The notes under the pieces were generated by a model. The model worked only from the letters and a program-made list of their open reading frames with translations, was not told where the DNA came from and did no database searches. The position numbers and the translations under genes were made by a program. From the NCBI GenBank assembly GCA_964612455.1, contig CAZTCB010000003.1, forward strand, positions 1,953 through 65,952: DNA of 64,000 nucleotides, read 5' to 3'. This document shows positions 37,229-38,008 of this stretch, piece after piece. The DNA comes from an uncultured Subdoligranulum sp. (GTDB taxonomy: Bacteria > Bacillota > Clostridia > Christensenellales > CAG-314). Within the stretch, counting starts at the first letter, position 1. Every line of letters starts with the position of its first letter.

Positions 37229-38008
37229 TTACGCGCCTTCGAGCAGCATTTTGTCCGCAAGCAACGCTATAAACTCGCCGTTTGTCGGTTTATCGTTGGC
37301 AGTATACACTTTTACTCCGAAAAGATTGTTGATATTATCGATTTTTCCGCGACTCCATGCTACTTCTATCGCATGGCGAATAGCTCTCTCGACCTTACTT
37401 GCCGTAGTGGCGTATTTTTTGGCAATGGTCGGATACAATCCGCGCGTTATCGTGTTGATAATCGCAGGATCTTCTACCACGCACTTGATACCGTCCCTTA
37501 AAAATTGATACCCCTTGATATGAGGAGGAATACCTATACTTACAAAAATCGTAGCAAGACGCTCGTCTATGCTCTTGATATGCCTCGACGTTCCTGCCGA
37601 GCCACCGCCCGAGTACGCCGTCGTCGAATGGTTTTGACCGCATATATCCGCAATGCGTGTTTCTAACTGTTTGTAATTGATGGGTTTTAACAAATAGCAC
37701 GTCGCTCCCGCAGCAAGACAACGACACATAAACACTTCGCTTTTAAGGTCGCTTACAACTATAAACTTTGGTGCGTTTTCTACTCCCACAAAGTGCTCGA
37801 TGAGATCCAAGCCCGAAAAACCGGACATCAATACCTGCGTAATGACGACGTCTATGCTCGTTTTATCCCTGTCTATTTCTCTCAAAACCGTTTCACCGTC
37901 GTCGGTATCCAATACCACGGACATATTAGACTTGGTCGAAAAATAATTTTTTAAACCTTCCCGCGACGCTTTGTCGTCGCCTACTATCGCTATTTTTATC
38001 GTTGACAT
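37229..38008 (-). CDS. spo0A: Sporulation master regulator Spo0A (atypical receiver: Gln at the phospho-acceptor position)
   Basis: The C-terminal domain is near-identical in motif to Spo0A ([51 protein letters not shown]). N-terminal receiver fold is present. The start MSTIKIA has a GGAGG RBS. Confidence 0.92.
   Translation of the reverse strand: [259 protein letters not shown]

Follow-up and report, generated by a model that had tools for sequence, protein, structure and literature searches.

Spo0A is described as being activated in all endospore formers by phosphorylation of a conserved aspartate (PMC11210211). In Clostridioides difficile, the D56A substitution in Spo0A abolished phosphorylation and lowered sporulation more than 1000-fold (bioRxiv 10.1101/2022.02.07.479450), and no Spo0A lacking the aspartate is mentioned in the searched passages of a survey of Spo0 pathway evolution (PMC6136694). 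The gene described here, spo0A of an uncultured Subdoligranulum sp. of the Clostridia, lies at 37229..38008 on the minus strand of a 64,000-nucleotide stretch of contig CAZTCB010000003.1 (assembly GCA_964612455.1); this whole stretch is called the window below. The gene encodes a Spo0A with a glutamine, Gln58, at the position of the phospho-acceptor Asp56 of the Bacillus subtilis protein. The substitution is shared by a clade of relatives, and the receiver domain that carries it is still under purifying selection.

Receivers without the acceptor are known from other regulators. HP1043/HsrA, ChxR, RitR, GlnR, BldM/WhiI and CmrT combine a PF00072 fold without phospho-acceptor with a DNA-binding output (PMC4395418; Bourret 2025 preprint), and such regulators are regarded as constitutive dimers or as proteins under the control of expression, partners, ligands or other modifications (PMC4395418; Bourret 2025). 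HP1043, ChxR, GlnR and Rem/MirA serve as precedents for phosphorylation-independent pseudo-receivers under control by availability or by partners. The Bourret dataset comprises 9,153 pseudo-receivers versus 143,116 true receivers, and the common replacements of the aspartate are Glu with 26%, Asn with 16%, Ser with 15%, Gly with 11% and Ala with 9% (Maule 2015, PMC4395418). In S6 Table of the latter paper, 7 of 391 proteins with the architecture Response_reg~Spo0A_C are counted as aspartate-less, and the architecture is not discussed; Spo0A is absent from the text of the Bourret 2025 perspective. A literature search for a described aspartate-less Spo0A returned just the count in S6 Table, and no analysis was found in the searchable literature. 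Spo0A and pseudo-receivers are each already known, and the window protein combines the two.

The sad67 allele is a deletion of part of the Spo0A receiver. This allele and the isolated C-terminal domain provide Spo0A activity without Asp phosphorylation, at a level set by induction, according to two reports (PMC4689505, PMC3269414), and this is where a likeness to the window protein would lie. The alleles are engineered receiver deletions, whereas the receiver in the window is full length, folded, under selection, natural and clade-wide.

A Spo0A with glutamine at the phospho-acceptor position

The spo0A open reading frame (ORF) comprises 259 codons plus a stop codon and starts with the ATG at 38008-38006, preceded by GGAGG at 38022-38018, 10 nt upstream. 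A longer version starting with TTG at 38077 was dropped because the ATG at 38008 has the GGAGG and agrees with the N termini of the homologues. Against TIGR02875, the NCBIfam equivalog model of Spo0A with a cut-off of 200 bits, the product scores 217.6 bits over model positions 2-258 of 262. Pfam recognizes Response_reg (PF00072) at residues 6-119 with 62.2 bits (cut-off 30.2) and Spo0A_C (PF08769) at residues 153-253 with 131.5 bits. The C-terminal DNA-binding and transactivation domain comprises residues 145-259 (37232..37576; this and all protein features below are on the minus strand). It matches the structures 1lq1 and 1fc3 (B. subtilis, Geobacillus) with a phmmer E-value of ~4e-37, the 1lq1 match covering residues 145-257. 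Foldseek gave template modelling (TM) scores of 0.88-0.92, a root-mean-square deviation (rmsd) of 1.5-2.0 and 56% identity to B. subtilis, from which the recognition helix differs by one residue. The original prediction had called this domain textbook Spo0A, a description that fits these values. The protein is a Spo0A both by the curated family threshold and by fold.

The receiver domain without aspartate comprises residues 1-125 (37634..38008) and adopts the (beta/alpha)5 fold in an AlphaFold2 model, in which the mean predicted local distance difference test score is 84 and the linker 127-144 is the sole disordered part. Strands beta1 (4-9), beta3 (54-57), beta4 (81-86) and beta5 (104-107) follow the five-strand, five-helix order, and Foldseek, which matches the domain to many receivers, superimposes it on the Spo0A receivers 5wq0 and 1qmp with TM scores of 0.88-0.91 and an rmsd of 1.4-1.6 Å. 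Because beta3 consists of residues 54-57, Gln58 is the first residue past this strand. In the model, D11/D12, Q58, S86 and K108 occupy the five active-site positions of receivers.

The sequence alignments lead to the same assignment. A phmmer comparison with the solved receiver 5wq0 pairs the Q58 segment with DVLLLDIIMPHLDGL, and in a MAFFT alignment of B. subtilis Spo0A with 120 homologues Q58 falls in the D56 column. The same Asp column was obtained when hmmalign was applied with a receiver hidden Markov model (HMM) made solely from Spo0A proteins that have the aspartate (D-type). A misalignment masking an Asp or Glu was ruled out as an explanation, since the four methods concur and no acidic residue is found between D53 and D68. 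The original prediction had placed Gln58 opposite D56 in a stretch free of Asp and Glu and had proposed a profile alignment as a check; the placement stands, as does the claim that the remaining active-site residues are kept, with the numbering now set to Ser86 and Lys108.

The quintet of the window Spo0A is accordingly D11, D12, Q58, S86 and K108. The acidic metal-binding pair D11 and D12 (37973..37978) is retained according to the alignments, and the model puts it in the loop that follows beta1. S86 (37751..37753) takes the conserved Thr/Ser position where beta4 ends and is at least 90% conserved in alignment A1. The motif Y105-L-L-K108-P-I110 (37679..37696) contains the switch aromatic residue, the conserved Lys and an aliphatic residue two positions after it (K+2); Y105, K108 and P109 are conserved to 90% or more. 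T86 and K108 of B. subtilis carry the same numbers as S86 and K108 here. The receiver has no phospho-acceptor Asp, the criterion of Maule 2015 for aspartate-less receivers, and it misses at least one of the five active-site residues, the criterion of Bourret 2025. According to all four methods, Gln58 replaces the phosphorylatable Asp (D56) that a Spo0A is expected to have where beta3 ends.

A receiver that has neither Asp nor Glu at this point would be unable to take a phosphoryl group in the canonical way. The proposal that this master regulator is beyond activation by a canonical phosphorelay or by orphan kinases is supported, as far as sequence goes, by Gln at the acceptor site, the otherwise kept quintet and the fixation of the substitution across relatives.

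With the canonical Spo0A proteins of B. subtilis, Geobacillus and C. difficile (1lq1, 1fc3, 1qmp, 5wq0) the window protein shares the two-domain architecture, the TIGR02875 family, a receiver TM score of ~0.9, the acidic pair, Ser/Thr86, the aromatic residue 105 and Lys108, and the gene is found amid sporulation genes. It differs by Gln in place of Asp56, by Ser in place of Pro four residues after the Asp position, by Ile at K+2 where B. subtilis has Phe, and by the lack of an adjacent spoIVB. Pseudo-receiver regulators such as HP1043/HsrA and ChxR often keep the Thr/Ser, aromatic and Lys switch residues as well. The window protein is set apart from them by its Spo0A_C output and by a host pathway in which it is the textbook target of a phosphorelay. 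It also departs from aspartate-less receivers at large, as Gln, and likewise the His and Pro of its relatives, are outside the common replacements given by Maule.

The substitution is fixed across relatives

The Gln58 codon is CAG (37835..37837; CTG on the plus strand) and differs from GAY at two positions, as had been read in the original prediction, which argued that a single base-call error cannot explain it. Over 4101 bp the window is 100% identical to a Logan assembly of SRR10277277, and three members of the same 90% cluster, from other contigs or samples and with 3-9 residues different, all have Q58. Among the closest 120 homologues, Gln is found in ten clusters (P0001-P0008, P0011 and P0012) with 61-84% identity, and His occupies the Asp column in two (P0009 and P0010). 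The Gln codon is CAG in the window and in the related locus L002, and CAA in L003-L005. At other loci the site is encoded by CAC (His, L006), CCC (Pro, L057) or GAA (Glu, L058), and the Gln, His, Pro and Glu codons are connected by single-base steps. The fixation of Gln under selection in related species rules out an artefact of base calling or assembly. With two base changes needed, a second identical assembly, three variants that keep the residue and at least ten related clusters that carry Gln in both synonymous codons, a sequencing or assembly error at Q58 has a negligible probability.

Two further clades, each with ~52% identity, have other residues at the site. The Pro clade has VVITPIMLPELNAF together with an E-D acidic pair, and the Glu clade, in which a few members have Asp, shows VVITELVMSGEDGF and no longer possesses the acidic pair ('GQ-'). 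A neighbour-joining tree groups the Gln/His clade with the Pro clade as its sister and places the Glu/Asp clade next, all on branches of ordinary length beside D-type proteins of related taxa. The canonical DD-D-S-K proteins P0048 and P0062, like other D-type Spo0A proteins, fall outside the Gln/His, Pro and Glu clades, which makes the loss of the Asp a derived state. The phosphorylation site is thus broken in differing ways in neighbouring lineages. The scope is wider than in the original prediction, which had described one gene and advised a search of related genomes: the substitution is a clade-wide trait with His, Pro and Glu sister variants, and it recurs elsewhere in the family.

The relatives derive from gut metagenomes (human, pig and others) and bear the label 'Clostridiales/Clostridia bacterium', and more distant matches are labelled Christensenella, Christensenellales or Ca. 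Stercoripulliclostridium. A few records bear Gram-negative titles although they carry spo0A, namely Prevotella sp. (L019, L053 and L054) and Corallococcus sp. (L058/P0052). Such titles on metagenome-assembled genome (MAG) records are probably wrong labels or reflect contaminated bins.

When 1.84 billion cluster representatives were searched exhaustively with phmmer, 547 proteins were obtained at E <= 1e-30; the best 150 of them were inspected, a sample biased towards relatives of the query. In this sample 94 proteins have the Asp, 33 have no recognizable receiver (fragments, degenerate N-terminal domains and tandem Spo0A_C proteins) and 4 have no assignable residue at the Asp column. A non-Asp residue is present in 19 of the 117 proteins with a recognizable receiver (Glu 7, Asn 4, Gly 4, Ser 3, Gln 1), and the local alignments of these receivers are clean, for example 'PDVVILNLVLS', 'PDIVLLGMIIP' and 'PDVLVISSLLS'. 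Despite the bias of the sample, these proteins show that acceptor loss is recurrent in the Spo0A family, and they suggest repeated independent losses across uncultured Clostridia.

More extreme degeneration of the regulatory domain is also seen. At the loci L016, L020-L028, L033, L035-L037, L039, L041-L043, L046 and L047, in MAGs labelled Ca. Stercoripulliclostridium, Clostridia or Eubacteriales, the proteins are full-length (~245-275 amino acids), their well-conserved Spo0A_C is 62-67% identical to that of the window, and their N-terminal domain fails the Spo0A receiver profile. Another set of proteins (P0143 with 439 amino acids, P0144 with 454, and P0149, P0155, P0181 and P0243) has 3-4 stretches matching Spo0A_C and no receiver; these look like tandem Spo0A DNA-binding domains, either real or as artefacts of gene calling.

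The receiver without aspartate is under selection

Synonymous sites between the relatives are saturated, with a proportion of synonymous differences (pS) of ~0.7-0.8, and the nonsynonymous divergence (dN) of the receiver is 0.13-0.5. The ratio of nonsynonymous to synonymous rates (omega) is ~0.06-0.3 for the receiver, where estimable, and ~0.02-0.04 for the DNA-binding domain. In the closest pair, L004 versus L005, the values are 0.058 and 0.036, respectively. Column conservation per structural segment is equal in the non-Asp receivers (0.54-0.72) and the D-type relatives (0.53-0.68), and against the HMM of D-type Spo0A receivers the window receiver scores 109 bits, compared with 114-137 bits for canonical D-type receivers. 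The most conserved receiver segment is the beta4-alpha4 stretch 'kFiv.SeLKsEvF', followed by Y105, K108 and P109. The alpha4-beta5 face, which includes the region of this stretch, is a common dimerization surface of receivers (Maule 2015, PMC4395418). The receiver is a working domain minus one function, and not a decaying one.

The K+2 residue is Ile or Leu in every sequence of the Gln/His type. According to the Bourret perspective, an aliphatic residue at K+2 shifts receivers to active conformations, and Phe has the opposite effect. As a marker of non-Asp Spo0A the K+2 residue was rejected, being weakly associated and frequently aliphatic in D-type relatives too.

Palindromic boxes upstream of spo0A

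A predicted sigma-A-type promoter, found as a consensus match at 38035..38063 on the minus strand, consists of TTGCAA (38063-38058), a 17-nt spacer and an extended -10 element TGT-TAATAT with the hexamer at 38040-38035. These elements are conserved upstream of spo0A in the relatives; an automated promoter scan listed no minus-strand site at 38035-38063. Beside the -35 element is the palindrome TTTGTACAAA (proximal box, 38069..38078), a candidate operator, and a second copy (distal box, 38092..38101) is found 23 bp from it, both without an assigned strand. These two are the only exact copies in the window. Both boxes are also present at approximately -67 and -90 from the start codon in L002, L004 and L005, which have Gln, and in L057, which has Pro. 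In L006 (His) the distal box is exact and the proximal one degenerate, in L003 just one box is exact, and the D-type L007 has a copy with one mismatch, TTTGTACATA, at the distal position. Overall, L002-L007 and L057 retain the distal box, some of them with a single mismatch. Since the synonymous sites are saturated, this conservation of non-coding boxes points to a conserved regulator of spo0A transcription, for which the double palindrome looks like an operator. The presence of the box in the D-type L007 indicates that the boxes predate the loss of the Asp.

The palindrome TTTGTACAAA differs from the 0A box core TTTGTCGAAA in the central two bases only. In several relatives an exact 0A box (TTCGACA) is located 110-131 nt upstream of spo0A. 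In the window, 7 canonical 0A boxes (TGTCGAA) were found versus 14.7 expected, and none of them is directly upstream of spo0A.

Further upstream, a 28-nt hairpin with a GC stem, AAAACGAACCCGAGTTGTGGTTCGTTTT, occurs twice (38396-38423 and 38535-38562), the copies being 139 bp apart. They follow just after tRNA-Leu(CAA) (38301-38386), each with flanking T-runs on both strands, and could represent terminators that work in both directions or a small element that was duplicated.

Sporulation genes and neighbourhood

The window contains a number of sporulation genes around spo0A. Equivalog models identify sleB (30607-31296; TIGR02869, 283 bits, above the cut-off), spoIIR (31372-31938; TIGR02837, above the cut-off) and a full-length spoIVA (61515-62999; TIGR02836, 609 bits versus a cut-off of 460). 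Pfam matches identify ypeB (29142-30584), a SipL-domain/LysM protein (35172-36665) and veg (36718-36963), and a pdaB-like deacetylase is encoded at 47251-48054. On the minus strand at 57196-59626, a minD-like ATPase gene is followed by a 210-residue ORF without family match and by an M50 metalloprotease gene, which is the order of minD-spoIVFA-spoIVFB in B. subtilis. The 210-residue ORF may be a very divergent SpoIVFA. The NCBIfam model of SpoIVFB did not match the M50 protease, and no model confirmed SpoIVFA or SpoIVFB. Of the intact sporulation genes listed in the original prediction, spoIIR, spoIVA and sleB are thus confirmed by equivalog cut-offs and ypeB and sipL by Pfam, whereas spoIVFA/FB are indicated by gene order only. 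Among the scanned ORFs of the window, no histidine kinase (HisKA/HATPase), Ser/Thr kinase, stand-alone receiver or Spo0F-like protein, or Spo0B-like protein was found.

The neighbours of spo0A vary, being veg and sipL in the window, polA and coaE in L003 and L006, and other genes in L057 and L058. A spoIVB gene was never found next to spo0A, neither in the window nor in the relatives compared. Synteny therefore failed as a proof of orthology, and the position of the gene speaks neither for nor against it. Genes for large predicted surface proteins, with a Cthe_2159 carbohydrate-binding domain or BspA-type leucine-rich repeats, recur near spo0A, in the window at 33146-35023 and 51660-53285 (both on the plus strand), in L006 at 5236-7557 and in L057 at 10938-14282.

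How the regulator may work

The loss of the acceptor leads to the question whether the receiver could still be regulated by a signal through other chemistry at or near the old active site, via the hydroxyl of T57 and a Ser/Thr kinase or via binding of a metal, a small molecule or a protein. D11, D12, S86, Y105 and K108 are all kept in the Gln/His clade, and T57, directly before Q58, is invariant there, with the codon ACG in 6 of 6 sequences. The CheY variant D57N can be phosphorylated on Ser56, the residue preceding the Asp position. Aspartate-less receivers under Ser/Thr phosphorylation or small-ligand control have also been described (Maule 2015, PMC4395418). Yet this Thr is shared by the D-type clade ('IVITD'), the Glu clade ('VVITE') and the Pro clade ('VVITP') and is thus a lineage trait and not a compensation. 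The Glu/Asp sister clade has no acidic pair, and the residue of the Pro clade is incapable of binding metal or phosphate, which argues against the pocket being a shared requirement, and neither a Ser/Thr nor a histidine kinase is encoded among the scanned ORFs. Such an alternative input is considered unlikely.

It is rather improbable that the protein is a divergent paralogue and that a canonical, phosphorylatable Spo0A encoded elsewhere in the genome runs sporulation. The view is limited to 64 kb of this genome, the gene is not beside spoIVB, and its neighbours differ between relatives. Against a paralogue, however, are the score above the TIGR02875 cut-off, the very strong purifying selection on the DNA-binding domain and the nesting of the non-Asp clades by D-type proteins in the Spo0A tree, without long branches. 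Moreover, a scan of relatives at <=83% identity, to which the genome of the window itself does not belong, gave 55 loci in 55 different assemblies and no second locus in any of them, the search patterns being taken from this protein so that a distant copy could escape. Very improbable is also a lineage that is non-sporulating or losing sporulation and has repurposed Spo0A as an ordinary unphosphorylated transcription factor. Some distant Spo0A_C proteins in MAGs labelled Christensenella, Christensenellales or Ca. Stercoripulliclostridium have N-terminal domains that match the receiver HMM barely or not at all, and cultured Christensenella and Catabacter are described as non-spore-forming (PMC8289216). 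The window, however, has spoIVA, spoIIR, sleB, ypeB, sipL, the pdaB-like gene and, at the place of spoIVF, an M50 protease gene, and its receiver scores close to the canonical ones against the D-type HMM.

The favoured reading, with a probability of roughly 0.65, is that of a genuine Spo0A which does not depend on Asp phosphorylation. With an aspartate-less receiver that lacks canonical phosphorylation, kinases or a phosphorelay would not switch Spo0A on. The conserved beta4-alpha4-beta5 region, the kept S86, Y105 and K108 and the Ile at K+2 would fit a receiver retained as a permanent dimerization and regulatory domain that may favour the active conformation. How much active Spo0A is present would then depend mainly on production of the protein, which could be set via the sigma-A-type promoter and the two palindromic boxes, possibly with feedback through 0A boxes, and binding partners might contribute. 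Such a protein would be expected to dimerize and bind DNA constitutively, to be controlled through its expression and still to take part in the start of sporulation. Abundance as the switch is put forward tentatively, as a possible mechanism and not as the expected one.

Several points weigh against a phosphorylation-independent, constitutively active Spo0A. The basis is sequence and a structural model from an uncultured lineage known from MAGs, and the 64-kb window is only part of the genome, which bears on the question of a canonical paralogue. A pocket without function would be expected to drift, and the retention of D11, D12, S86, Y105 and K108 is a hint of some input through the old active site and not of pure constitutive activity. 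The aliphatic K+2 residue is also common in D-type relatives, and the palindromic boxes, being present upstream of the D-type L007 as well, are not specific to the loss of the Asp. Finally, sudden induction of constitutively active Spo0A did not lead to sporulation in B. subtilis (PMC4689505); simple control by abundance would therefore need a gradual build-up.

Implications for sporulation control

In textbooks Spo0A is the end-point of the phosphorelay, and recent papers describe its phosphorylation on the conserved Asp (PMC11210211; bioRxiv 10.1101/2022.02.07.479450). Here, a clade with intact sporulation genes has stably exchanged this Asp for Gln, His, Pro or Glu while its receiver is still under selection, a combination that is unexpected for the sporulation field and directly testable, Spo0A proteins being small and soluble. 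It provides a natural system for studying the roles of the Spo0A receiver beyond phosphate and the control of pseudo-receivers. It also questions how safe it is to predict sporulation of gut MAGs from gene presence alone and calls for caution in inferring the wiring from kinases to Spo0A in uncultured Clostridia. It is conceivable, though far from assured, that this uncultured gut Clostridia lineage and other Spo0A lineages with independent Asp loss start endospore formation without His-Asp phosphotransfer, the decision being made by concentration, through the double-palindrome operator and perhaps autoregulation, or by a partner or ligand. If the clade sporulates, the decision to sporulate can run without two-component chemistry.

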